A DNA stretch of 11,952 nt, taken from positions 1-11,952 of the forward strand of contig JBGSIV010000091.1 of NCBI GenBank assembly GCA_041742355.1, written 5' to 3'. A program made the translations under genes and the position numbers. This DNA is from Candidatus Zixiibacteriota bacterium (GTDB taxonomy: Bacteria > Zixibacteria > MSB-5A5 > GN15 > FEB-12). The notes beneath the pieces are model-generated. The model worked only from the letters and a program-made list of their open reading frames with translations, was not told the DNA's origin and did no database searches. Of this stretch, positions 1 through 11,952 are shown one piece after another (position 1 is the stretch's first letter; every line of letters begins with the position of its first letter).

Positions 1-609
1 GCTCCAGCGCGACCAGCGCAGGAGCCCGAGCCCCTCGGGCGTCCCGCGCAGGAAGATCAAGGCGTCCTTCAAATCGGTCGTGCGACCGTCATACTCGACC
101 GCGAGGTAGAGCCGTGCTTTCGGATCGGCCAGCAGCCGGATCTCGCTCACAGCCGCGCCGGTCTTCGGCAGAAGCGGGAGCGGAGCGCTCTGGTCGCCGT
201 TGGAAACGAATACGTCGGCTACTTTCGCCCGCACCAAGCGTTCCGGACGTTGCGGCGTGAAGAAGAACAGGCCACCGTTGTCGCGCAGCTCCCGGTAAAA
301 AAACCGCGTCGTGGAATCAATATCGACCACGGGATCGGACAATTCGCATTTCATCACGGTGAACGCCGGCACCGGCCAGCGCCGCACTTCCGGGCACACC
401 GAGCGGATGAGCGACTGTGTCGCCACCTCCCAGATCCGGTCGACACGGGAGTCGATGCGCGCGAGTTGGCCGGAGTACATGTGCAGGAGGATCCGCAGGA
501 TCGGATCCATCCGTTCCGGCGATTCGGAGATCTCCGGGTTCCACGCCCGCAGTTCGCGGAACATGTCGCGGAAGATCTGCTCTCGGCTCTGTGAATCGGT
601 CGTCGTCAT
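1..609 (-). CDS. tssF: T6SS baseplate subunit TssF, N-terminal 203 codons (runs off the left edge; not in the ORF track)
   Basis: Hand translation from ATG at 609 is open to position 1: MTTTDSQSREQIFRDMFRELRAWNPEISESPERMDPILRILLHMYSGQLARIDSRVDRIWEVATQSLIRSVCPEVRRWPVPAFTVMK. The 'DP-x-x-x-LL' helix, the 'LI-x-x-x-x-P...P-x-PA-x-TV' pattern and the later 'FFFTP' and 'LYLAV' segments match the TssF N-terminus. It lies directly after tssE, with AGGA upstream of the ATG. Confidence 0.85.
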   Translation of the reverse strand, partial: MTTTDSQSREQIFRDMFRELRAWNPEISESPERMDPILRILLHMYSGQLARIDSRVDRIWEVATQSLIRSVCPEVRRWPVPAFTVMKCELSDPVVDIDSTTRFFYRELRDNGGLFFFTPQRPERLVRAKVADVFVSNGDQSAPLPLLPKTGAAVSEIRLLADPKARLYLAVEYDGRTTDLKDALIFLRGTPEGLGLLRWSRWS

Positions 610-634
610 CTATGTCCTGTTGGGTGCCCCCAGC

Positions 635-1009
635 TCAGGCCAGCCGGTAGACCGCCTCAAATTTGCGTTCTTCGCCGTTGTCTTTGTATGTCCCGGTGAC
701 CCTGACCACCATCCCCAGCCGCGCCGCCAGCTCGGCCTCGGAGGGCGAGAACGAGATCGACACGTTGTACAGCCGCTTCTCGAAAGCATCGAGCGCGTTG
801 CGCAGGGCCGAGCGGATATCGGCTTTGTTGGAAGAGAAAATGTCGCCGTACTCGCGTTCCCAGATCTCGCAGCCGAACTCCGGCAGGAAAGGCATCCGCC
901 CGAGCCGGGTCGAGAGAATGAGGCCGACCGAGTGCGTGATCGACTGCAGCAAATCCCCCCGGTTGAGATAGCCGTTGCGCAGCACGAGAGGCAGGGAGAG
1001 GTATTCCAT
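635..1009 (-). CDS. tssE: GPW/gp25-family baseplate protein TssE (124 aa)
   Basis: Begins 'YLSLPL', followed by 'SITHSVGLILSTRLGRMPFLPEFGCEIWE' and 'IRSALRNALDAFEKRL', which are gp25 motifs. The 'Y-x-x-LPL...FGC-x-IWE' form resembles Bacteroidota-type TssE. Located between vgrG and tssF. Confidence 0.9.
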   Translation of the reverse strand: MEYLSLPLVLRNGYLNRGDLLQSITHSVGLILSTRLGRMPFLPEFGCEIWEREYGDIFSSNKADIRSALRNALDAFEKRLYNVSISFSPSEAELAARLGMVVRVTGTYKDNGEERKFEAVYRLA

Positions 1010-1015
1010 ACGCGG

Positions 1016-2794
1016 TTAGTTGAGATTAATGACGGCGCCTTTCACCGTCACGGGGCCGCTCGCTTTAAGATCGAGGGTAGCGTTTGCTTTGACCTCGGCC
1101 GAGGCGCTCGCTTCCTGCTTGAGGTTCGCGCCCGCCTTGATTTCCGTGTCAGTGCCCGACTTCAAAATCAGCTTCTGCCCGGCGTCGACCGTGATATTCT
1201 GTCCCTTGAGGGTGATATCCCCTTCGGTCGAAATCGTGATGGCCTTCTTCGCGGCATCCAGCACGATCTCGCACTTCTTGTCCTTGGTGATGATCTCGAT
1301 CTTCTCGGCGCCGCCTTCGTCGGTGAGCACTATCCGGTGCCCCGACTTGGTCGTCAGCCCCTTCTTCATGTTGTCCTTCGCGACCAGGTCCGCGTCCGGC
1401 ATCGCGTTCTTGTTGTAGAGCGCGGCAATCGCGATCGGGGCGCTGGGATCACCGTGCTCGAATCCGACCAACACTTCATCGTTGATCTCGGGCAGCATAT
1501 AGAAGCCGTGCTTGTCGCCGGCGTGTCCGGTAGTGAAACGCATCCAGTCCGATTCGAGCTGGGTCGGCCAATTGAACTTTACTTTTATCCGCCCCAGCTT
1601 CTCCGGGTCGTCGACATCCGTGACCACCGCGGTCTGCAACTCCGGTTGCGGCGCGGGGAGTCGCCGGGGCCGCGGGTAGGCCGTCGCCAGCGGCGTGCCG
1701 CTGAAGATGTTGTAGTATTTCCCCCCGCTGATGAAGTGCTCGACATGTTCGACGAAGTAGACGTCCGCGACGCCGTCGAGTCCTTCCACTTTCAGCCTCG
1801 TTCCCGGCCGGATTGCCGGGAGAGACGCCTGCCCGACACACCGCACCATCTGGGCGAGGTTATGCCCCCGCTCCCACTTCATGTAGTTGTCCAACAGCGC
1901 CTGCTCGTGCGCGGTCATCCCCACATCGGATATCCCCATTCCCTCGTAGATCTCCTTCGCGGCCTTTTCTGATTTCGACGGCAGGTCGCCGAGCGACCGG
2001 TTCATGCGCACCGCCTGCTCATCGGAGACATACAGCTTCCCCATCGCCGGGTTGTAGCTGGCTGAGCTGTAGCGGAAGGGGCCGGTGCCGAGATTGAGCG
2101 AAAATGCCCCGAGCATCTCGTTCCACTTGACCGTCTCGGACGATTTCGAATTGTCCGCCGCGACACAGGTGATACTAGAGCCGTCGTAGACCGTGTACAG
2201 CCCGTGCAGCGCGGCGAGCCGCACGACAAAGTCAAAATCCGTTTCGTGGTACTGGATGATGTACGGGAACTTGCTCTGGGTCGCCTCGATCGAACCCGAT
2301 GTGACCTTGTATTGCCCGATCACCTGGCTGATTGCGTCCGACGCTTTCATCTGCTCGAACACCCGGTTCTTCGGCGCACCGTCGAGGAGAACCGTCGGAC
2401 TCTTCGCCACGATCACGGCCTCGCCGAACTGGTCGACCGAGCTCTCGAAGCGGACCTCTGTGACCGTCCCGGTAAACGACAGCAGCTTGTCGTTGGCGAC
2501 CTGCTGGTTGGCCGAGGATGTCTTGAGCGTCAGCGGCTTGCCCAGGATCCCCGAGAGTTCGTCGACCGAGATCGTCTCGCCGCTCTGATCGCCGACCCGG
2601 TGCAGGCCGATCGTAAGCTGGTGATGGTCGTTGATCGGCTGGACGAGGTGGAAGTACTGGATCTCCCGGGCGAAGGACTTACCGCTGACGGTAATCTCCG
2701 CGCCGAGATTGATCCCTATCTTCATGGCCGACTCTACGTCCCTGGCTCCTTTTGAGCCCGCTCTGCCGGCAGCACCGTTGATATCGACTGTCAT
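1016..2794 (-). CDS. vgrG: VgrG/TssI spike protein (592 aa; gp27-like hub, gp5 OB-fold and short beta-helix, no C-terminal effector extension)
   Basis: 'QYHETDFDFVVRLA' (gp27/GPD-like region), 'AVVTDVDDPEKLGRIKVKF' and 'GFYMLPEINDEVLVGFEHGDP' (gp5 OB-fold), then beta-helix repeats ending 'GAVINLN'. AGGAG lies close upstream of the ATG at 2794; an alternative start is the ATG at 2725. Confidence 0.95.
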   Translation of the reverse strand: MTVDINGAAGRAGSKGARDVESAMKIGINLGAEITVSGKSFAREIQYFHLVQPINDHHQLTIGLHRVGDQSGETISVDELSGILGKPLTLKTSSANQQVANDKLLSFTGTVTEVRFESSVDQFGEAVIVAKSPTVLLDGAPKNRVFEQMKASDAISQVIGQYKVTSGSIEATQSKFPYIIQYHETDFDFVVRLAALHGLYTVYDGSSITCVAADNSKSSETVKWNEMLGAFSLNLGTGPFRYSSASYNPAMGKLYVSDEQAVRMNRSLGDLPSKSEKAAKEIYEGMGISDVGMTAHEQALLDNYMKWERGHNLAQMVRCVGQASLPAIRPGTRLKVEGLDGVADVYFVEHVEHFISGGKYYNIFSGTPLATAYPRPRRLPAPQPELQTAVVTDVDDPEKLGRIKVKFNWPTQLESDWMRFTTGHAGDKHGFYMLPEINDEVLVGFEHGDPSAPIAIAALYNKNAMPDADLVAKDNMKKGLTTKSGHRIVLTDEGGAEKIEIITKDKKCEIVLDAAKKAITISTEGDITLKGQNITVDAGQKLILKSGTDTEIKAGANLKQEASASAEVKANATLDLKASGPVTVKGAVINLN

Positions 2795-2827
2795 AGCTCC
2801 TGCTCGCCTTCCACCCGGTCATAGGGC

Positions 2828-2854
2828 GCCGGGCGGGGTTGTGGCCCGCCCGGC
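2828..2854 (-). other. GC-rich RNA stem-loop just downstream of tssD, without a U-tract
   Basis: GCCGGGCGGG (2828-2837) is the exact reverse complement of CCCGCCCGGC (2845-2854), giving a 10-bp stem and 7-nt loop. On the minus strand it is followed by GCCCTATG rather than poly-U. Confidence 0.7.
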
Positions 2855-2867
2855 TGCATGCCATTAC

Positions 2868-3272
2868 CTACTCTTCCCACCGATTGTCGATTTCGGCGTC
2901 GCCGATCGACAGCTTGTGGCAGGAAATCTCGAAATACTCGAATACCTGGTCGTCCGGTTTGTCCTTGATGTGCGGAACGGACTCCACGTACTTCGTGATG
3001 AAGCCCTCTTCCCAGGTCAGTTCCTTCATCATGGCGTCATCGGGATTCTTGAAGACCACCTTTCCGGCTTTCCAGTTGGGCTTGGAGGAGTCCATCGCCC
3101 AGCGGGCGATGTCACTGGTGGAGTCGGATTCGCGGGTAACCTTGATTACGCCGGCGTGGGCGCGGTCGGAAGGCCGACCGGTCTCGTCTTTCGCCGTATA
3201 CAGCTCGTACGAAACGGCGTATACGTTCTTGTAGACCACACCGTCGATCTCAAGTGCCGGTCTGCGTGCCAT
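2868..3272 (-). CDS. tssD: T6SS tube protein TssD (Hcp), T6SS-iii type (134 aa)
   Basis: 'YELYTAKDETGRPS...AGVIKVTRES...WAM...KAGKVVF...MKELTWEEGFITKYVES...IS...L-x-IGDA-x-x-DNRW' is the pattern of the Bacteroidota-type TssD family. Strong RBS AAGGAGA at 3279-3285. Lies between tssC and vgrG. Confidence 0.93.
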   Translation of the reverse strand: MARRPALEIDGVVYKNVYAVSYELYTAKDETGRPSDRAHAGVIKVTRESDSTSDIARWAMDSSKPNWKAGKVVFKNPDDAMMKELTWEEGFITKYVESVPHIKDKPDDQVFEYFEISCHKLSIGDAEIDNRWEE

Positions 3273-3305
3273 AGGGTATCTCCTTCTTCAACTTGTTGAA
3301 AAGCT

Positions 3306-3332
3306 ATGTGAAACGCTCTGTTTGCTTCACAT
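3306..3332 (-). promoter_or_regulatory. Inverted repeat (hairpin or operator) in the tssC-tssD intergenic region
   Basis: ATGTGAA (3306-3312) pairs with TTCACAT (3326-3332) across a 13-nt spacer, extendable by G-U and C-G pairs in the minus-strand RNA. A second inverted repeat, TTCAAC-TT-GTTGAA (3287-3300), sits just upstream of the tssD RBS. Confidence 0.45.
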
Positions 3333-3358
3333 CTGCTGCGGCCGCCCCCGGACCGGTG

Positions 3359-4795
3359 TTACTTGTCCTTCACGTTGGTCTGGTTGTTCTCGTTCCACGC
3401 GGTGAATTCAATGTTGAACGTCCGCGCCGGATACTTCGGATTCAGGCTGACCTTGATATCGATCTCCTGGCGCTTGCGCATCTCGTCGTCGGCGAAAATC
3501 TCGACCTTGTAGTCCTGCAGGATATTGTCGCCGCCCGAGATCGCCTTCATAAACTTGTCGATATCACGGCGCATGGCGTCGATGAACTTCTGGTCGATGA
3601 CGCTGAATGTCTGCTTGTTCAAATAATTGCGCAGCGTCTTGTAGACGTAGTCGTACGTGCGGCGGATCGAGTAGACGTTAAACGTCTCCTTGTTGAAAAG
3701 CGTCGCCGCACCCATCGCCACCGCCTGCCCCTCGAAATTCACGATCGGGTTGACCCCCTTTTCGTTGATCTTCGAGGCGTCGGGCTGGTTCGCCTTGAAC
3801 CGAATATACTTCGCGTCGTTGATCTTGCCGTGCTTGAACCCGGCCATCGGCTGCTGCATCCCGACCGTCACATCCCCCTGGTACATCTTGCCCGCGACCG
3901 CCGCCGACGGCGGGATCCAGACATCCTCGTCCTCGTACTGGTTGGCCTCCCGGGCCATGACGTAGTTGGCAAACAGTGCGATATACTGCTTATAGGCGTC
4001 GGAACTCTGGAGGCTGGCGTAGTTAGGATCATCCAGCATCTCCATCACTTCCTCGAACGATTCGAAATTCGGCAGGTCGGTCAGCACCTGGACCTTGTTG
4101 GGCATGCCGATCTGGCGGCCGAAATTGTCGATCGCCTCGACACTGCCAACATACCCCGGCACCACGAGCATGCCGAACGCCTCCTTGACGCTCCACTCGC
4201 GGTAGAGATCCGAAATCGCCTTGCCGAGCGCCTCGAACTTCTCCTTGTCGTCGGGGTTCGCCAGTTCCTCGCCCGAAACATTGGCAAACCACGCATTCAC
4301 CTTCTCGTCGGGCTCCTGCTGGGCGTTCGCGAAGAACTTGTCGATCGCGCGGTACGTCGTTTCGATCTCGCGGCTCTCGCGGTGGACCTTGCGCATGTTC
4401 TTCTCGAGATTCTTCTCAAGCTTCACCGCTTCGTCGGTGATCTGCTTGCGGACGTCGTCGAGATTGTCGCTAGTGGCGAGCGCAGCCACCCACATCTCGA
4501 GCCGCAGTTTCAAAAGCGCGCGCTGCTTGGCGAATTCGGGCTTGTTCAGGAATTCCTTGCGCTGGAAATCCTTCTTCGGATCGAGCCACTCAACCCCGCG
4601 CACGAGATCCCCTTCGGCCGTCTTGAACGACGGCAGCAGGGCCGCGAGCTTCTTGAAATCGGAAAACTGATCGTCGAGAATCGACGCAAACTCCTCGTCG
4701 GACACCTTCTCGACCTCTATCGTCGGCCTGGCGGCCGGCGCCGGCTGCGCATCGGAAGCCTGCGACTGAGTATTGATTTTTTCTTCTTCACCCAT
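3359..4795 (-). CDS. tssC: T6SS contractile sheath large subunit TssC (DUF5458/T6SS-iii type), 478 aa; true start 4795 rather than 5107
   Basis: 'REIETTYRAIDKFFANA', 'LVVPGYVGS', 'ANYVMARE', 'IPPSAAVAGKMY', 'QQPMAGFKHG', 'GAATLFN', 'YSIRRTYDYV' and 'PKYPARTFNI' resemble Bacteroidota-type TssC. ATG at 4795 is preceded by GAGGT (4801-4805), which overlaps the tssB stop. The longer ORF-track start overlaps tssB in another frame. Confidence 0.9.
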   Translation of the reverse strand: MGEEEKINTQSQASDAQPAPAARPTIEVEKVSDEEFASILDDQFSDFKKLAALLPSFKTAEGDLVRGVEWLDPKKDFQRKEFLNKPEFAKQRALLKLRLEMWVAALATSDNLDDVRKQITDEAVKLEKNLEKNMRKVHRESREIETTYRAIDKFFANAQQEPDEKVNAWFANVSGEELANPDDKEKFEALGKAISDLYREWSVKEAFGMLVVPGYVGSVEAIDNFGRQIGMPNKVQVLTDLPNFESFEEVMEMLDDPNYASLQSSDAYKQYIALFANYVMAREANQYEDEDVWIPPSAAVAGKMYQGDVTVGMQQPMAGFKHGKINDAKYIRFKANQPDASKINEKGVNPIVNFEGQAVAMGAATLFNKETFNVYSIRRTYDYVYKTLRNYLNKQTFSVIDQKFIDAMRRDIDKFMKAISGGDNILQDYKVEIFADDEMRKRQEIDIKVSLNPKYPARTFNIEFTAWNENNQTNVKDK

Positions 4796-4803
4796 TATGC
4801 ACC

Positions 4804-5244
4804 TCACTCGCTCAGCAGATCGATGTAGTACCGGGCCACCTTCAGAAGCGCCTGCTTCGTTTCCGGATCGGCCAGCGCTTTCTGCAGGGACTTGTTCTTC
4901 TTGAGCTGCGATTCGAGATCGTTGAGAATCTCCTTGCCGTAGTACACCCTCGACAGGTACTCGTTCTTCTCGATCAGCTCCTTGGGCGTGAAATCCTTCA
5001 TCGCCCGGATGTGGAACTCGGCGTTCACCGGTTCGCCCTCGGTCGTCTCCAGTCCCACTTCGAATCCCGGCTGGAATTTGTCGAACACCTCTTTGAGGTT
5101 GCTGCACCGCACCGGGGCCACGTCGGCGTCTTCCTCGCTGTTCAGCTTGGCGGCGTAGAGCGTCTTGTTCGACGGGAGCAGCTCCACCGGCAGGCCGTCA
5201 TCGCGCTGGACCTTTTCGGTCGCGCCGAGAACAAATTTCGCCAT
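4804..5244 (-). CDS. tssB: T6SS contractile sheath small subunit TssB (T6SS-iii type), 146 aa
   Basis: 'LPSNKTLYAAKL...NLKEVFDKFQP...VGLETTEGE...EFHIRAMKDF...L-x-x-QLKKNKSLQKALADPETKQALL' resembles Bacteroidota-type TssB. RBS GGAGG at 5250-5254. Directly upstream of tssC. Confidence 0.88.
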   Translation of the reverse strand: MAKFVLGATEKVQRDDGLPVELLPSNKTLYAAKLNSEEDADVAPVRCSNLKEVFDKFQPGFEVGLETTEGEPVNAEFHIRAMKDFTPKELIEKNEYLSRVYYGKEILNDLESQLKKNKSLQKALADPETKQALLKVARYYIDLLSE

Positions 5245-5281
5245 CAGGTCCTCCGTCTATTTCAATTGCTGTTACTTCTTG

Positions 5282-6379
5282 TCACCTGGCGGGCGACGTC
5301 ACAAACGTGAACGCCCCGTCAGCCACATCGACAAACACGCGGTCCCCGGCCACCACCTTGCCGGTGATAATGTCGAGCGAGAGCTTGTTGACAATATCCC
5401 GCTCGATAATCCGCTGGATCGGCCGCGCGCCGAGTTCGAACGTGTAGCCGTCTTCGGCCAGTTTCCGGCAGGCCACCGGCGTCAGCTCGGCCGTGATATG
5501 CTGGTCGGCCAGGAGCTTGTTGAGCCCCTCGAACTCCAGCGCCGCGATCTTCTCCACCTGATCCATAGTGAACGTGTGGTAGATGATAATATCGTTGAGC
5601 CGGTTCAGAAGCTCCGGCCGGAATTTCTTGAACAGGAAAGCGCGCACCTGGTCCATGTCGACCGGCCGCCCTTCGCGGTCGGCATCGAGAATCATCTCGG
5701 CCGCGTAATTCGAGGTCAGCACGACAATCGTGTTGGAGAAATCGACTGTGCGGTTCTGACCGTCGGTCAGTCGGCCGTCGTCGAGCAACTGCAGCAGGAT
5801 GTTGAACACATCAGGGTGCGCCTTCTCAACCTCGTCGAGCAGCACGATCGAGAACGGCTTGCGCCGCACCGCCTCGGTGAGCACCCCGCCAGCCTCGTAG
5901 CCGACATAGCCGGGCGGCGCACCGATCATCTTAGCGACCGAGTGCGGCTCCATGAATTCGGACATGTCGAGCCGCACCATGGCGTTTTTGTCGTCGAAGA
6001 GGAACTCGGCGAGTAGCTTCGGCAGGTAGGTCTTGCCGGTACCGGTGGGGCCGAGGAACAGGAACGATCCCACCGGGCGATTGGGCAGCTTGAGCCCCGC
6101 GCGCGACTTGCGCACCGCGTTGGCCACCACCTTGATCGCCTCTTCCTGCCCGATAATCCGCTTGGACAGGAAGGCTTCCATATTCACCAGACGGTCCTTC
6201 TCGGCCGTCAGCATTTTCGACACGGGAATCCCGGTGCGGCGGGCGACCACCGCGGCGATATCCGGGTCATCGATTACCGGCTGCAGCGTGTCGACCACTG
6301 CCTTGATCTGCCCAAGCGTTTTGACCCGCTCGTCGAACTCCTTGCGGAGGATCGCGATGTCCTTCATATCCTGGTTCAT
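5282..6379 (-). CDS. tssH: TssH/ClpV C-terminal half (second AAA+ module and D2-small domain), 365 aa; start 6379 rather than 6514
   Basis: 'IAAVVARRTGIPV', 'IIGQEEAI', Walker A 'GPTGTGKT', pore loop 'GAPPGYVGY', Walker B 'IVLLDEVEKAHPDV', 'FRPELLNRL' and sensor-2 'GARPIQR'. The ATG (6379-6377) overlaps the TGA (6378-6376) of the N-half as ATGA, preceded by GGAGGAG at 6384-6390. Confidence 0.9.
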   Translation of the reverse strand: MNQDMKDIAILRKEFDERVKTLGQIKAVVDTLQPVIDDPDIAAVVARRTGIPVSKMLTAEKDRLVNMEAFLSKRIIGQEEAIKVVANAVRKSRAGLKLPNRPVGSFLFLGPTGTGKTYLPKLLAEFLFDDKNAMVRLDMSEFMEPHSVAKMIGAPPGYVGYEAGGVLTEAVRRKPFSIVLLDEVEKAHPDVFNILLQLLDDGRLTDGQNRTVDFSNTIVVLTSNYAAEMILDADREGRPVDMDQVRAFLFKKFRPELLNRLNDIIIYHTFTMDQVEKIAALEFEGLNKLLADQHITAELTPVACRKLAEDGYTFELGARPIQRIIERDIVNKLSLDIITGKVVAGDRVFVDVADGAFTFVTSPAR

Positions 6380-7827
6380 TTCGCTCCTCCCGTCGCTTCC
6401 ACCCGGTGCCCCCAGCTCTCCTTGAGCCGGTCGACCGTTTCGTTGAACGCGAGCACGGCCGCATTGAGCGCCGCGAAATCCTCCGGTGCCTGGTCGGGTT
6501 TCTTCCCCTCGCACTTCTTGAACAACGCCTCGATCTCCTCGACCTTCTTCGCCGCCGCGGGCAACTGCTTGCAGGCGTACTCCGCCTTGACTGCGAACTC
6601 GGATGCGGCTTCGTCAACAATGTCCAGCGCGACATCGGGCAGGTTCCGCTCGCTCAGGTACCGCTTCGCGTAGCGCACCGCCCCGGTGAGAGCCGCCTCG
6701 GTATACGTTATTTTGTGGTGCGTTTCGTACTTGGGGACCACGCCCTTGAGAATCCGCACCGAGTCATCGTAGCTCGGCTCGCCGATAACGACGCGCTCGA
6801 ACCGGCGGTCCAGCGCCTTGTCCTTTTCGAGGTATTTCGCGTACTCTTCCTGCGTGGTCGCGCCGATCAGGCGAATCTGCCCTCGTGCGAGCGCCGGCTT
6901 GATCAGGTTGCCGGCATCCATGCCACCCCCGCCGCCCGCTCCCATCAGGGTGTGAACCTCGTCGACAAACAGGACTATCCGCCCGGCCGACTTCACCACC
7001 TCGCTCACCAGCGCTTTGAACCGCTCCTCGAACTCCCCCTTGTATTTCGCCCCGGCCACGAGCGCCCCCATGTCGAGCTCCATGACCTTGACACCCTGGA
7101 GCGCTTTGGGCACCCGTTCTTCGATAACCGCCTGGGCGAAGCCCTCGACTATCGCCGTCTTGCCCACCCCGGCGCCGCCTACCAGCACCGGGCTGTTCTT
7201 CCGACGACGCAGCAGGATCTGGACAACCTGCTGGATCTCCTTGTCCCGCCCGATACACGGATCAAATTCACCTGCCGCCGCCCGGTTGGTCAAGTCCTCG
7301 CAGTAGCGGAGCGTCCCGGCGATCTCCTTGGCCGGGGCGCCATCGGGAGCGGTCTTGGTCGACACCTTTCCGCCCGTCATCTCGGCAACCGACTTGCTCT
7401 CGGCGATCGCCCGGTAGAAGTCTTCTTTGGTAACACCGACCTGCTCGCGCACGTAGCCCGAGAGGCGGGATTTCGGATCAAACGCCGCAATAAGGATATG
7501 CTCCGGCTCGACCAAGGCATCGAACAGCCGGGCCTTCTCCTCCAGCGCCTGGGTCAACACCGACTGCACCGCCGGGGAAACCGGCGGGTTCTCCTTGGCC
7601 GTGGCACGCCCCGGCTGGTCTTTCAGGTACGACTCAAGGATCGACTCGACCAGCCCCCGCCCCTTGCCGAGTTGATTGAGGATCGATTCGACCTCGGAGC
7701 CTTCGTGGCGAATCACGGAAACCAGGAGATGTTCGATCTCGATTTCCGCGTGGCGAAACGCCACCGCCACCTCGCGGGCATTCTTAATGACCGCCCTCGC
7801 ATCCGATGAGAAATTGGCAATATCCAT
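6376..7827 (-). CDS. tssH: TssH/ClpV N-terminal half (two Clp-N repeats, first AAA+ module, start of the middle coiled coil), 483 aa
   Basis: Clp-N repeats 'EIEIEHLL' and 'VEPEHIL', 'DPCIGRDKEI', Walker A 'GGAGVGKT', pore loop 'AKYKGEFEER', Walker B 'LFVDEVH', Arg finger 'ALDRRF' and 'RNLPDVALDIVDEA'. Its position as the first gene ahead of tssB-tssC supports ClpV rather than housekeeping ClpB. Confidence 0.9.
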   Translation of the reverse strand: MDIANFSSDARAVIKNAREVAVAFRHAEIEIEHLLVSVIRHEGSEVESILNQLGKGRGLVESILESYLKDQPGRATAKENPPVSPAVQSVLTQALEEKARLFDALVEPEHILIAAFDPKSRLSGYVREQVGVTKEDFYRAIAESKSVAEMTGGKVSTKTAPDGAPAKEIAGTLRYCEDLTNRAAAGEFDPCIGRDKEIQQVVQILLRRRKNSPVLVGGAGVGKTAIVEGFAQAVIEERVPKALQGVKVMELDMGALVAGAKYKGEFEERFKALVSEVVKSAGRIVLFVDEVHTLMGAGGGGGMDAGNLIKPALARGQIRLIGATTQEEYAKYLEKDKALDRRFERVVIGEPSYDDSVRILKGVVPKYETHHKITYTEAALTGAVRYAKRYLSERNLPDVALDIVDEAASEFAVKAEYACKQLPAAAKKVEEIEALFKKCEGKKPDQAPEDFAALNAAVLAFNETVDRLKESWGHRVEATGGAK

Positions 7828-7881
7828 TGTGCCCCGGCTGTTGCGGTGTTCACGACCGTATGCGGCCTATTTCCTTCGCGG

Positions 7882-7896
7882 TTGGCAATTGTCCAA
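7882..7896. promoter_or_regulatory. Imperfect palindrome over the predicted transcription start; candidate operator
   Basis: TTGG-CAATTG-T-CCAA has TTGG/CCAA arms and an internal CAATTG palindrome. It lies 5-19 bp downstream (minus strand) of the -10 box. Confidence 0.35.
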
Positions 7897-7900
7897 TTTT

Positions 7901-7930
7901 ATGATACCCGGAAGTTTTAGTCATTGTCAA
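7901..7930 (-). promoter_or_regulatory. Sigma70-type promoter for the tssH-tssB-tssC-tssD-vgrG-tssE-tssF operon
   Basis: The minus strand reads TTGACA (7930-7925), an 18-bp spacer, then TATCAT (7906-7901): a perfect -35 and a 5/6 match to the -10. It sits in an AT-rich patch of the longest intergenic gap, 73 bp upstream of the tssH ATG. Confidence 0.75.
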
Positions 7931-7976
7931 GCCGTTTGCCGGGTGCTTCGCCGCCTTCCGGCATTCTGCCTGCCGC

Positions 7977-8732
7977 TCACTCTTCATCGGCATCAGTATC
8001 GGCGGTATCCGGGCTCGCCGCGCCCGACTTCTCCGAGCGCCAGTCCTCCGGAAACCACTGGTTGAAATCGATTGCCTCTTCGAGTTCGAAGTGGCGTTTG
8101 TAAACAATCATGATAATCCCGCTGGTCGTCCGCACCGCGTCGAGCCGGTCGGCCCAGCCCTCCATCTGCGCGAGCGTCTTTTCCGGCGCCGATGACATCA
8201 CCTGCGCCGAACCGGTGTCGGCGCCGAGGTAGCGGAACACTGGCGATTCCATGGCGAAGAAGGTCTCGGCCAAACGGGCCGCCTGTTTGAGGGGATCGGT
8301 CCCACCGAACGAGCGGGGATCGTAGGCGCTGAACCGGATCTTGTAGAACCCGGCCCCTTCCTTTACATCGACCGTGCATCCCGCAGCCCGATAGGTGTGA
8401 CGAACCAGATCGAAATCGAGGGAATCCGGCCCCGCAAGATGGTAGGCATGCGTGGCCTCTTTGGTATCGAATGGCCCCATCCCCTCTCGAAAGACATCCC
8501 TGGCCCAGTTGATGCTCTTGAAGTAGACATGCCCCGGGATTTCGGCAAAATCCGCCACGGGAACGTAATCGACCTCGCGGTACCCCCCGACGACGCGGAG
8601 GACGTCCGTTCGGAATTCAGCCATCGGATCCGTTTCTGCCATGCGACCTTCTTTCCTCGGCCCGTCGTTACGCCCGCCGCATGCCGCCCACAGCAGCATG
8701 CCCAGGACAAGCACGGCGGTCGCCCGCCTCAT
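7977..8732 (-). CDS. Predicted lipoprotein (251 aa), candidate immunity protein; start 8732 rather than 8756
   Basis: MRR-ATAVLVLGMLLWAA-C18-GGR gives a basic n-region, a hydrophobic h-region and a lipobox-like WAAC. The ATG (8732-8730) overlaps the TGA (8731-8729) of the upstream gene as ATGA. Acidic C-terminal tail; no family recognised. The immunity role is inferred from position. Confidence 0.75.
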   Translation of the reverse strand: MRRATAVLVLGMLLWAACGGRNDGPRKEGRMAETDPMAEFRTDVLRVVGGYREVDYVPVADFAEIPGHVYFKSINWARDVFREGMGPFDTKEATHAYHLAGPDSLDFDLVRHTYRAAGCTVDVKEGAGFYKIRFSAYDPRSFGGTDPLKQAARLAETFFAMESPVFRYLGADTGSAQVMSSAPEKTLAQMEGWADRLDAVRTTSGIIMIVYKRHFELEEAIDFNQWFPEDWRSEKSGAASPDTADTDADEE

Positions 8733-10168
8733 TCCACCGGATGCGGATACTCCCACACCCTCGTCACTTTCTTTTTCGTCCCGCCCTGCGCGTACACAAA
8801 TTCGTATTCGGCCAACCCCCAGAAGACCAGAATCAGCGTCCGCTCCAGTTCGGCCACCGCATCGGGATCATTCGCGTCGACCTGGCCGATCTTCCCCACG
8901 CCCCCGCCGAACCAGGCCACCTGCGCACTCCCCGCACCGTCGTCGTAGGTGAATTTCATGTACGCTTCGAAATTGTTCCAGCCCACCTCGGCCTGCGTGT
9001 ACGCTTTCCCCACCTTGACCTCCCGGTCAACCAGCGCGTAATTCTTCTTCTTGTCCGGCCCGGTGACCCGCGAACCCCGATCCTTGATGACCGGCGTCAT
9101 GTAGTCGGAGGCATCGGCGTTCACGTATTTGACTTCGGCCGTCCCGGGGAGGCCGATCTGATTCTTGAGCCCCCGGATGAACCGGACGATCGCCTGGCAT
9201 TCTCCACCATACTTCTCGAATTCGGCCAACGGCCACGCCCCGCCCACCGCCCCCTTCATGTACGCCGAAAAACCGGCCTGCGTCATGCGATTCTTAAGAT
9301 CCTTGTGCTTATCGAGGTACTTCTGCTGCTTGCGGGACAGCATGTCAAACGACAGGATATACGCCGGGAATCGTTTGAACCACTCCTCGATGATATCGAG
9401 TACTTCCACCGCATCCCCGGTGGCGCAATACCATCTGGTCGCGGTCGTCATGCGGCGGGTGGTGACGCCGTCCTCCGGGCGGCCGTCCTCGATAGGCGCG
9501 GCGCACGTGGTATAGAGCACGTGCGGGCCGGAGGTCCCGGCCACGTACTCCCCGCCTTCGATCGCCACCTTCCACGAAATCGACGGAATCGTTACTTCGC
9601 CCATCAGATTCGGCAGAGGGCCGTCGGCTGTGACCTCCACTTCCTTCGTCCCCGGCGACAGGGTAATATCCCCCCGAAAACTGCTCCACGCATCTTTCCC
9701 GACACCGATCAGCCTGCCTTCCACCTGCTTGCTCGATCGGGTCCGCACGTTTACCCGTGCTTTCAACTGCAGCGTCGATGCCGTATCGACCGACACCGGG
9801 CGCGCCCGGTTGGGCCGCCATTCCGGCGCCGGTATCAGCGGACCGGTGTTCGCCCAATCCGCATCGTTCTCTTTCATCAGGCCGTGATCGGAGAGGAACT
9901 CGAGGCTGAGCAGAATCACATCGGTCGTTCGCCCGAAAAACTTCGCCAGTCTGCCGCTGGCCGCTTTCCCCGTGTTGGCCCGCTTGCCCGGAATCCACAC
10001 GTGGTCACCGACATAAATGACATTCGGATCCGGGCGTAATTCCCGGAAATCCTCATTCTTCTCATGGTTGTAGATGTCATCCCAGCGCTTCAGACCGAAC
10101 CGTTTGGCCAGCCGGCTGAGCGTATCGCCCCGCTTCAGGACATACCAGAATCCGTCGCCGTTCGCCAC
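8729..10168 (-). CDS. LysM-domain protein with a C-terminal transglutaminase/papain-like Cys motif (479 aa); candidate T6SS effector
   Basis: N-terminal LysM 'YVLKRGDTLSRLAKRFG...IYNH..N....RPDPNVIYVGDHVWIP', a beta-rich middle region, and 'GECQAIVRFIRGLKNQIGLP' (Cys324). No signal peptide. The GTG start directly follows the upstream TAA, with GGAGGAG just before it. Confidence 0.8.
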   Translation of the reverse strand: MANGDGFWYVLKRGDTLSRLAKRFGLKRWDDIYNHEKNEDFRELRPDPNVIYVGDHVWIPGKRANTGKAASGRLAKFFGRTTDVILLSLEFLSDHGLMKENDADWANTGPLIPAPEWRPNRARPVSVDTASTLQLKARVNVRTRSSKQVEGRLIGVGKDAWSSFRGDITLSPGTKEVEVTADGPLPNLMGEVTIPSISWKVAIEGGEYVAGTSGPHVLYTTCAAPIEDGRPEDGVTTRRMTTATRWYCATGDAVEVLDIIEEWFKRFPAYILSFDMLSRKQQKYLDKHKDLKNRMTQAGFSAYMKGAVGGAWPLAEFEKYGGECQAIVRFIRGLKNQIGLPGTAEVKYVNADASDYMTPVIKDRGSRVTGPDKKKNYALVDREVKVGKAYTQAEVGWNNFEAYMKFTYDDGAGSAQVAWFGGGVGKIGQVDANDPDAVAELERTLILVFWGLAEYEFVYAQGGTKKKVTRVWEYPHPVE

Positions 10169-11077
10169 TTACTCCTCCCCCTCGAACGGATCGATCACTT
10201 CGAATTCGGGGAATTCCACGCGCACCGCCCCCGGCGGGATATCCGTCTCGCGGGCGCGTCCCTCCGCATCGAGCGTCCCGTCGCGCGTGCTGCCGTCCGC
10301 CAGGTACAGCGTGTACTTCGCATCGGCGACAGGCTGCCCGTTCTCGTCAGCCAGCACGATATCTAACCAGTCCTTGAACACCAGCAGCTTCGATTCCTGC
10401 TTCTTCCCGAAAACCGCTCCGCCGTAGTTCACGGTGAAAAAGTACTCCGGCGGATTATAGCTGCCGCCGTACTCTTCCTTCTCCTCTTTCGTGGGAATCT
10501 CGTCGGTATCCTCATGGTACTCATACTCCCACTGCAGTTCAATCTTGCTGTCCTTCACCACGGCCGGCAGTTCCACGATCTTGTCATGTACCCCGCCGGC
10601 ATCGTACTCCCGGATCGTCACGAGCACCTCTTCCCCCGGCCCGATCCCCTTTTCGACCTCGGCCGACAGGGTCAGCACATCCCCGCGCCGCGCTTCGCTG
10701 GCGCTCCACTTGAGGTTCTTGATCACGACTGGCGGCGCCACCGGAATGCGGTCCGATTCTCCCTTGAGGCCGTTTTTCGACAACTTCACCTCGAAGTACA
10801 ATTCGTCCTCGGGATCGAGATCTTCCGGGATCGCGATTTCATCGCGGAACCGATCGCACCGCATCACCCCCTTGACCGTGCCGATCTTCTTGCCGCCGTC
10901 GATTCGCACCGTCACCTCGACCGGGGCGCCGAAGCCGACGAACGAGGTTCCCACCTCGAAATCCGCCTTCTGACCGCAAATGGCGCTCGGCGACACCCAG
11001 ACCGCATACAGCAGGGCGGACTCGACCTTCGCCGTTTCCTGTTTATCGGTGTTCTTGTTGAACGAGAGTTCCGGCAT
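10169..11077 (-). CDS. Acidic protein with two tandem beta-sandwich-like repeats and a C-terminal transthyretin/carboxypeptidase-regulatory-like domain (302 aa); start 11077 rather than 11257
   Basis: The C-terminus 'WLDIVLADENGQPVADAKYTLYLADGSTRDGTLDAEGRARETDIPPGAVRVEFP' has the pattern of the prealbumin/transthyretin-like domains found on VgrG/PAAR extensions. The ATG shares one base with the upstream stop (TGATG) and is preceded by GAGGAAG. Confidence 0.75.
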   Translation of the reverse strand: MPELSFNKNTDKQETAKVESALLYAVWVSPSAICGQKADFEVGTSFVGFGAPVEVTVRIDGGKKIGTVKGVMRCDRFRDEIAIPEDLDPEDELYFEVKLSKNGLKGESDRIPVAPPVVIKNLKWSASEARRGDVLTLSAEVEKGIGPGEEVLVTIREYDAGGVHDKIVELPAVVKDSKIELQWEYEYHEDTDEIPTKEEKEEYGGSYNPPEYFFTVNYGGAVFGKKQESKLLVFKDWLDIVLADENGQPVADAKYTLYLADGSTRDGTLDAEGRARETDIPPGAVRVEFPEFEVIDPFEGEE

Positions 11078-11529
11078 CAGTCTTCCTCGGGTGACTCGTA
11101 GGTCCCCGGCACCAGTTCCTCGATCAGGTCGCGGACATGATCGCCGAGCATCTGGTACGAACGCTTGCTGAACTGGACGGTGAACATGAATCCGACTCCC
11201 CCCGCCAGCACGAACACGTACATGTGGAGCACCGTCACGCCTTCCCCCGGCGCCCACTTGTAGACGAACTCCCAGGCCGGATTGCCGTCCTCGACCGTGA
11301 TCTCCTCATGCTTGAGCACCTCGATCCCGTCCATCGCACCGACAATCGGCACCGTGCGGTCGCGCACGAACTCCTCGAGATCCTCGGTGCGCGGGTGGCG
11401 GTCAAGCGTCATCATGAGCAGGTGGGTGCGGTCATCGACCTCCGGGCCGGAGAACGTGAACACCGTCTGGTCCTCCCATCCGCGCGGGAGGTCGAGCGTA
11501 TATGGTTTCTTCTTGCTGCCCACGGTCAT
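11077..11529 (-). CDS. DUF1795/DcrB/PsbP-fold protein (EagR-like T6SS chaperone/adaptor), 150 aa
   Basis: 'LDLPRGWEDQTVFTF', 'LEEFVRD' and 'EEITVEDGNPAWEFVYKW...VLHMYVFV...GFMFT' fit the DUF1795/Mog1p-PsbP pattern and size. ATGA overlap with the upstream gene at 11526-11529. Confidence 0.72.
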   Translation of the reverse strand: MTVGSKKKPYTLDLPRGWEDQTVFTFSGPEVDDRTHLLMMTLDRHPRTEDLEEFVRDRTVPIVGAMDGIEVLKHEEITVEDGNPAWEFVYKWAPGEGVTVLHMYVFVLAGGVGFMFTVQFSKRSYQMLGDHVRDLIEELVPGTYESPEED

Positions 11530-11952
11530 TTCTCCAGCGTCTTGAGGAAAACCCGCACCTGCTCGATTTCATCATCCGTGTACCGGCGCGTATTCGAAGC
11601 GGCAAAGGCAAACTCGTCCGGATACCACGCCACGACCAGGGTCGCCGCGGCATCCGCCACCCGCGCGTAAACCGCCCGGTTCACGCTGCCGATCATGTAC
11701 GCCTCCCCGGCGTCATCGAGCGCGGGAAGCAGGTACTTCGCCAGCGTAGAATCGTTGATATACCTCAGATCCTGAATCGCCCCGTAGCGCACCGACGATT
11801 CCGGCGTAGCCAGCGGGCGGGTGAACGCGCTTTTGTCGCCCTCTCCCAGCCGGGCCAACGCCAGTTGCAGGGAGCGGATCACCTCCGGATCAGCCTCGGT
11901 CTTGAGCCGATTGCGCATCGGATCCACGGCGGCGCGATCGTCGAACCGCCCC
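11526..11952 (-). CDS. HEAT/PBS-lyase-like repeat protein, C-terminal part (frame open to the right edge)
   Basis: The frame extends past the track's GTG to the window edge: 'GRFDDRAAVDPMRNRLKTEADPEVIRSLQLALARLGE...ESSVRYGAIQDLRYINDSTLAKYLLPALDD...RVADAAATLV', which reads as HEAT-like helical hairpins. Confidence 0.65.
   Translation of the reverse strand, partial: GRFDDRAAVDPMRNRLKTEADPEVIRSLQLALARLGEGDKSAFTRPLATPESSVRYGAIQDLRYINDSTLAKYLLPALDDAGEAYMIGSVNRAVYARVADAAATLVVAWYPDEFAFAASNTRRYTDDEIEQVRVFLKTLEK

Follow-up and report, generated by a model that had tools for sequence, protein, structure and literature searches.

Two coupled genes very probably encode a split ClpV-like Hsp100 unfoldase in the type VI secretion clusters of Zixibacteria

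A stretch of 11,952 nucleotides (nt) from the genome of a Candidatus Zixiibacteriota bacterium (GenBank assembly GCA_041742355.1, contig JBGSIV010000091.1, positions 1 to 11,952), hereafter called the window, carries a type VI secretion system (T6SS) gene cluster in which the Hsp100 unfoldase ClpV/TssH is represented by two overlapping genes on the minus strand. The first gene (6376..7827) encodes 483 amino acids (aa; protein P0001), comprising the N-terminal domain, the first nucleotide-binding domain (NBD1) and a helical hairpin of the middle domain (M-domain), and is here called the N-half. The second (5282..6379; 365 aa, P0003), the C-half, encodes one M-domain helix and the second nucleotide-binding domain (NBD2). 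The N-half ends in ...WGHRVEATGGAK, written for P0001 also as ...RLKESWGHRVEATGGAK, before its TGA stop codon, and the C-half, in the frame from ATG 6379, begins with MNQDMKDIAILRKEF. At the junction, gggaggagcgaaATGA, the start codon (6379-6377) lies over the stop codon (6378-6376), forming the ATGA overlap (6376..6379, TCAT on the plus strand) of translationally coupled genes. A Shine-Dalgarno sequence, GGAGGAG (6384..6390, minus strand), is contained within the last codons of the N-half, and its GGAGG core (6386-6390) is located 6 nt 5' of the ATG. The split had first been described in a reading made from the letters of the window and their open reading frames (ORFs), hereafter the sequence-only reading. 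Its two frames with their stop and overlapping start, its strong Shine-Dalgarno site, its total of 848 aa for the two halves and the same ATGA coupling at the gene junctions 8729-8732 and 11526-11529 were all confirmed. A longer C-half frame opening at GTG 6514 added a translation rich in glycine and arginine, with no resemblance to Hsp100 proteins.

The single polypeptide of approximately 850-900 aa that is usual for ClpV/TssH is absent here, but the domain set of a class-1 Hsp100 (N-domain, NBD1, middle domain and NBD2) is complete, spread over the two chains. Pfam matches were Clp_N, AAA and AAA_lid_9 in the N-half and AAA_2 and ClpB_D2-small in the C-half. On the NCBIfam profile for ClpB (TIGR03346) the N-half covered positions 2-460 and the C-half positions 504-852, with 461-503 unmatched; on the profile for ClpV1 (TIGR03345) the corresponding ranges were 4-476 and 497-837. 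The Walker A/B, pore-loop, arginine-finger and sensor-2 motifs which the sequence-only reading had reported as retained corresponded to residues that were invariant in alignments of 36 sequences of each half: K223, D289/E290 and R341/R342 in the N-half, and K116/T117, Y158, D182/E183, N224, R260 and R319 in the C-half. The motif names (Walker A/B, pore-loop tyrosine, arginine finger, sensor) are ones that we presume from what is known of ClpB. Within the NBD1 Walker A motif GGAGVGKT (N-half residues 217-224; 7156..7179, minus strand), G217, G220, V221, G222 and K223 were invariant, as were G110-G113, G115, K116 and T117 within the NBD2 Walker A motif GPTGTGKT (C-half residues 110-117; 6029..6052, minus strand). 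Just before the break the N-half carries a WGHR motif (residues 472-475; 6403..6414, minus strand), of which R475 was invariant and W472 and G473 nearly so in the same 36 sequences.

Searching 40 relatives with the C-half detected an orthologue (72-85 % identity) in 26, in open frames of 295-416 aa in 24 cases and in fused frames of 855 and 890 aa in the other two. The ClpB/ClpC-type paralogues (approximately 46-51 % identity), when uncut by a contig end, were all in frames of 815-910 aa. Among 285 genomes representing the phylum, 116 had a match at E <= 1e-125. Orthologues with at least 71 % identity accounted for 110 of these matches, the window included. The orthologue was in an open frame of 251-471 aa in 105 of the 110 genomes and in a frame of 810-890 aa in five: G018 and G150, from the same genus, G026, G081 and G184. 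Another order of the class contributed four of the split genomes. One C-half match (G158:C540:10781-11836) contained a single TAG stop codon.

The locus was read in 46 cases, including the window, one contig labelled 'FCB group bacterium' and, deliberately fetched, four fused loci and a divergent pair (L128), so that the set is not an unbiased sample. Forty-one loci were split and five were fused. The break occurred at one alignment position in all 41 split loci, which represent many genera, four families and a second order, and recurrence of the split at the same position, one of the points left to be checked by the sequence-only reading, is in this way established. The divergent pair L128 (G139:C177:4000-11000; 2170-4628, minus strand), with an N-half of 463 aa (41 % identity) and a C-half of 356 aa (56 % identity), has its break at the same site, again as an ATGA overlap, and a tssB with 50 % identity comes after it. 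Either the fission is older than this divergence, or L128 represents a second T6SS lineage in the phylum.

A search of genome contigs beyond the phylum returned one close match ('FCB group bacterium', 73 % identity) and 79 further loci with 56 % identity or less, which were taken as ClpB-type paralogues. Representatives clustered at 50 % identity were mostly ClpB, with one fragment representative of the split family (P0009). Three other representatives of 373-414 aa (P0081, P0063 and P0095) were approximately 48-50 % identical to the C-half, with the match beginning some 30-50 residues from the N-terminus; they may be NBD2-only Hsp100 chains, i.e. other natural splits, or truncated gene calls. 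Public gene calls contained 26 N-half-only proteins of 459-490 aa without AAA_2, four of which carry Clp-type names (two assigned to Zixibacteria), and close homologues of the N-half had the source names 'candidate division Zixibacteria' and 'Candidatus Zixiibacteriota'. One of the 26, a homologue of 484 aa (P0166, 'AAA family ATPase'), has the NCBI source Candidatus Deferrimicrobium sp., outside Zixibacteria; either the split T6SS gene was transferred horizontally or the contig was mis-binned.

The form of the junction varied among the 41 split loci. The ATGA overlap of the window was present in 21 loci and a TAATG overlap (TAA/ATG) in 13, followed by GTGA (three loci), TTGA (one) and TGATG (one). 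In L014 a TAA codon and 3 nt precede the ATG, and both halves are in the same frame. In L123, in which the N-half itself is broken, the junction is TAG, 2 nt and ATG. The C-half was in the -1 frame relative to the N-half in 40 of the 41 loci. A GGAG, GAGG or AGGA core was found between -18 and -4 of the C-half start in 37 of the 41 loci, compared with 1250 of 7936 control windows (15.8 %) inside the same genes, and the conserved glycine-rich tail of the N-half is explained by the Shine-Dalgarno core embedded there. The pairwise ratio of nonsynonymous to synonymous substitution rates (dN/dS) was 0.034-0.113 for the N-half and 0.024-0.089 for the C-half (eight pairs each), placing both halves under strong purifying selection.

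The assembly was compared with Logan contigs, and bridging of the junction was judged by a 31-letter rule. A 1169-nt contig from run X1, which may be the source sample, spans 5861-7029 with 0 differences and 0 gaps, and is the only one to bridge the junction, the contigs from X2 (6236-6386) and X3 (6226-6376) falling short of it. No indel was listed in any of four runs, and none of the 21 runs found to carry the locus was RNA.

Alignment of the N-half with E. coli ClpB (residues 13-463) and B. subtilis ClpC (residues 4-463), and of C-half residues 29, 35 and 34 with E. coli ClpB 524, T. thermophilus ClpB 520 and ClpC 471, respectively, placed the break within the M-domain. The approximately 60 residues of E. 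coli ClpB 463-524 are represented here by about 38 (10 in the N-half and 28 in the C-half), with the break inside, and the M-domain lacks about 22 residues relative to E. coli ClpB. AlphaFold2 (AF2) models of the single chains had a mean predicted local distance difference test (pLDDT) score of 79.4 for the N-half, which has a low-confidence tail after WGHR (pLDDT 53), and of 81.0 for the C-half. Secondary structure assigned to these models with DSSP gave a hairpin of helices 396-439 and 448-469 in the N-half (6421..6642, minus strand) and an N-terminal helix of residues 8-31 in the C-half (6287..6358, minus strand), supplied in trans to the M-domain and followed by a loop and the NBD2 fold. 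As modelled, the M-domain is a ClpC-like hairpin with one further helix, and the break in the gene falls in the intervening loop, just past WGHR. The sequence-only reading had located the break in the middle coiled-coil region; more precisely, it lies in the loop that follows the ClpC-like hairpin rather than halfway along an M-domain of ClpB length. Among the split loci the sequence is variable on either side of the break, at the end of the N-half and at the start of the C-half. A man-made split of T. thermophilus ClpB reportedly lies at the M/NBD2 border, at about residue 520; the natural break described here falls about 35 residues earlier, and one M-domain helix travels with NBD2.

The complex of N-half residues 155-483 with the C-half was also predicted, using a 36-row alignment for each. 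The interaction prediction score from aligned errors (ipSAE) was 0.64, 0.64 and 0.66 in three runs, compared with 0.00 for the best control; of 157 solved complexes, 116 attained the mark for this score, as did 2 of 215 mismatched pairs. The runs agreed in at least 95 % of contacts, with a partner pLDDT of 80. C-half residues 5-32 were predicted to contact N-half helices 415-439 and 451-472 with heptad-like spacing, and C-half residues 34-57 to contact the NBD1 lid (N-half 372-411). An intermolecular coiled coil that reassembles the unfoldase, as envisaged in the sequence-only reading, therefore agrees with the model, which packs the C-half helix on the N-half hairpin, as a prediction and not a demonstration.

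The history of the split was examined in a quick tree (maximum likelihood, 46 rows) for which the genome's own ClpB-like and ClpC-like paralogues served as outgroups. L128 formed the sister lineage of all remaining orthologues. Within the split clade the five fused rows occupied four places, and the starred branches require at least three changes; in a 30-row quick tree (LG+G4) the fused rows need four changes. The approximately unbiased (AU) test rejected the fused rows as one group (delta log likelihood 111.6, p 0.0002), the group having been defined after the first tree was seen. Genus g10 contains both forms, split in G012 and G082 and fused in G081. The fused proteins keep the WGH[RK] motif, domain order and linker length of their split relatives, their linker sequences are unlike each other and unlike the split termini, and three-frame translation of the five fused junctions revealed no remnants of split termini. 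Since the fused forms fall inside the split clade at about four points and a single origin was rejected, fission appears ancestral and re-fusion secondary; one ancient fission before the divergence of the orthologues studied, followed by about four re-fusions, is the economical reading of the trees. The fused rows L125, L126, L127, L020 and L129 were on longer branches than the split rows next to them, with terminal branches of 0.41-0.56 and, for the fused pair G018/G150, a stem of 0.7 (median 0.2); the N-half part of this pair was only 56 % identical to that of the window. These lengths hint at faster change after re-fusion.

The pair is located in a T6SS operon. The gene for the small sheath subunit, tssB (4804..5244, minus strand; Pfam T6SS_VipA), begins 37 nt downstream of the C-half and is followed on the same strand by tssC (PF17541), hcp/tssD (PF17642), vgrG and tssE. 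We take PF17541 TssC and PF17642 TssD to be tied to the Bacteroidota-type T6SS-iii. The tssB gene directly follows the C-half in 44 of the 46 loci, and in the remaining two a contig end truncates the locus. Two single-chain Hsp100 paralogues on other contigs of the same genome, with open frames of 875 and 828 aa, have 40-41 % identity to the N-half. As these separate single-chain paralogues are present, the split pair constitutes a third Hsp100, dedicated to the T6SS cluster. The role of a housekeeping heat-shock disaggregase did not fit the pair, a separate ClpB-like ORF of 875 aa being present on contig C160, and the full four-helix ClpB M-domain including motif 2 was not found, the models showing a two-helix hairpin and one helix. 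In ClpB, M-domain motif 2 forms the wing that binds Hsp70. We infer that an M-domain shortened in this way, without most of the motif-2 wing, argues against an Hsp70-dependent disaggregase role.

It is very probable that the pair represents a genuine and ancient fission of the T6SS Hsp100 in Zixibacteria, in which two coupled cistrons give two chains that rejoin as a ClpV-like unfoldase. One mRNA would carry both cistrons, and the ribosome would end the N-half at the TGA and restart at the overlapping ATG, aided by the embedded Shine-Dalgarno site, a termination-reinitiation that may yield near-equimolar chains. The first chain would contribute the N-domain, the NBD1 ring and the two-helix M-domain hairpin, and the second the NBD2 ring, preceded by the third M-domain helix and by the segment packing against the NBD1 lid. 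A three-helix M-domain bundle and the lid contact are predicted to join the two chains, and a hexamer of such heterodimers could work like single-chain ClpV, threading and unfolding TssC and so taking apart the contracted TssBC sheath. In ClpV/TssH, the N-terminal helix of TssC is bound by the N-domain. The proposed role as sheath recycler derives from the gene context and from homology. According to the accessible text of PMC4239648 and PMC5048182, recycling of the contracted sheath is the function of ClpV. It appears rather unlikely that the third helix, supplied in trans, has a non-neutral role of its own, either by a swap onto a neighbouring N-half that staples the hexamer or by allowing separate assembly or exchange of the NBD1 and NBD2 rings.

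Among the alternatives, the one that survives best, although it is improbable, is that the halves are real but separate proteins and not one machine, with, for example, unfoldase activity in a single ring of the C-half and an adaptor or regulatory role for the N-half. Single-ring relatives of Hsp100 proteins such as ClpX and Skd3 do exist, and the disordered tail after WGHR in the model of the N-half alone would suit such a protein, but the two genes are always adjacent and coupled, all catalytic residues are kept in both, the predicted interface spans the NBD1 lid and the M-domain helices, and the re-fused lineages preserved domain order and linker length. Less probable still is programmed recoding, by -1 frameshifting or stop codon readthrough, which would produce one full chain and make the two genes an annotation artefact. 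The -1 frame of the C-half in all but one of the split loci and the purine-rich stretch that adjoins the overlap could be read as its signature, but no slippery heptamer is conserved across the junctions, the junction forms, from ATGA to TAG with 2 nt and ATG, fit no single mechanism, the start codon with its correctly spaced Shine-Dalgarno core in 37 of the 41 loci is the signature of re-initiation, and the N-half tail and C-half head are variable, as expected of free termini. The weakest alternative, an assembly or sequencing error or a recent pseudogene in which a one-base indel broke a single clpV, was invited by the two frames, which differ by one base at the junction, and by the G5 run (6413-6409) noted in the sequence-only reading about 30 nt 5' of it, but was effectively refuted by the recurrent break with its varied junctions, including the same-frame halves with TAA between them in L014, by purifying selection (dN/dS 0.02-0.11), by the G5 run coding for the conserved WG of WGHR, before the invariant R475, and by the X1 contig, which crosses the junction without difference or gap.

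An error or a fresh pseudogene is excluded because the same break position occurs with varying stop and start forms in 41 loci, and the contrary case raised in the sequence-only reading, that close homologues would be single ORFs and this copy under relaxed selection, does not apply to homologues that are overwhelmingly split with dN/dS of 0.02-0.11. The split loci, their varied junctions, the dN/dS ratios and the adjacency of tssB strongly support its claim of evolved fission rather than decay, and the indel that it wished to exclude was absent from the independently built contigs, X1, possibly the source sample, being the sole bridging run.

Several points weigh against the interpretation of the pair as a reassembled ClpV. 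The two separate protein chains are known here from the genes. Neither half reached the TIGR03345 (ClpV1) cut-off of 884.95 bits (N-half 390.6, C-half 312) or the TIGR03346 (ClpB) cut-off of 1232.1 bits (427.1 and 463.2), the sums were also below the cut-offs, and the ClpB model outscored the ClpV model on both halves; the name ClpV therefore rests on gene context. The complex model shows the likeness of the pair to a cut Hsp100, not binding, and its score may come from the memory that the model has of solved single-chain ClpB and ClpC structures. Among the 105 short-frame genomes, at least three (G003, G169 and G159) are truncated by a contig end, which prevents a judgement, and the group submitted to the AU test was chosen with the first tree in view. 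In L123 (G179:C43:3169-7230) the N-half is broken: it matches in two pieces, query 1-339 and query 359-482, the former with a stop codon in its frame. The copy may be decaying, or the locus may be misassembled, its genome being fragmented into 610 contigs. Finally, the split may be selectively neutral and not adaptive, the re-fused relatives showing that a covalent link is tolerated; because five relatives have re-fused, the split is tolerated rather than shown to be required.

Elsewhere in the window, the tssC ORF as listed (GTG 5107, 582 aa; 3359-5244 region) overlaps tssB by about 300 nt, and the Pfam TssC match in it begins only at residue 168; translation of tssC probably begins instead at an internal codon, close to where tssB ends. 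Upstream of clpV, five tightly coupled ORFs occupy 7977-11951 on the minus strand, with the ATGA overlaps at 8729-8732 and 11526-11529. They encode proteins of 259 and 362 aa without a match, a protein of 479 aa with a weak LysM match, a DcrB-like protein of 150 aa and a fragment with HEAT repeats. No membrane complex of the TssJ/L/M type was recognised within the window.

Compared with known systems, the pair resembles canonical ClpV/TssH (TIGR03345) in its N-domain, two AAA+ modules, middle domain and position in a T6SS cluster near tssB and tssC, and differs in being two polypeptides broken in the M-domain, below the equivalog cut-off and better fitted by the ClpB model. The N-half aligns end to end with residues 4-463 of B. 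subtilis ClpC (PDB 3j3s and others), a range that includes a short two-helix M-domain hairpin, but in ClpC only about 7 residues connect the hairpin to NBD2, whereas here there are about 41, including the extra helix in trans. As NBD2 aligns almost gaplessly to ClpB, it presumably has no ClpP-docking insertion. A secretion motor with several ATPase domains is naturally encoded by two adjacent genes in the case of EccCa/EccCb of the ESX-1 type VII secretion system, which belong to the FtsK/SpoIIIE ATPase family and to another secretion system. In Francisella, the sheath is disassembled by a ClpB-like Hsp100 and not by a ClpV of the TIGR03345 type (accessible text of PMC7182274 and PMC9068650). 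That protein, as far as the same texts describe it, is a single-chain housekeeping ClpB, whereas here a dedicated, split third Hsp100 is encoded in the T6SS operon, beside ClpB-like and ClpC-like paralogues. When T. thermophilus ClpB was engineered as separate NBD1-M and NBD2 chains, the modules still cooperated, according to the accessible part of the report (Beinker et al. 2005, J Biol Chem, PMID 16162497). For the principle of the natural two-gene ClpV, this engineered protein is the nearest precedent. The literature searched, including PMC2660368 and PMC4239648, yielded no account of a split ClpV/TssH or of any T6SS in Zixibacteria, subscription journals and supplements lying outside the scope of the search.

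The halves are at present listed publicly as 'AAA family ATPase', 'Clp protease N-terminal domain-containing protein' or 'ClpA', and T6SS finders that expect one TssH may score split systems as lacking TssH or as broken. If either of the schemes for the helix in trans were true, it would act as a switch, the recycling motor being on only with both chains present, and the re-fused lineages would be those which gave up that control. The tandem AAA+ unfoldases ClpB, Hsp104, ClpA/C, ClpV, p97 and NSF have been studied as single chains, and how their rings communicate via the covalent link and the middle domain is an active question. As a natural counterpart to the engineered split ClpB, the two-chain form, together with its re-fused relatives, would enable one ring to be labelled, mutated or titrated at a time, and allows asking what the covalent link and the M-domain each contribute.

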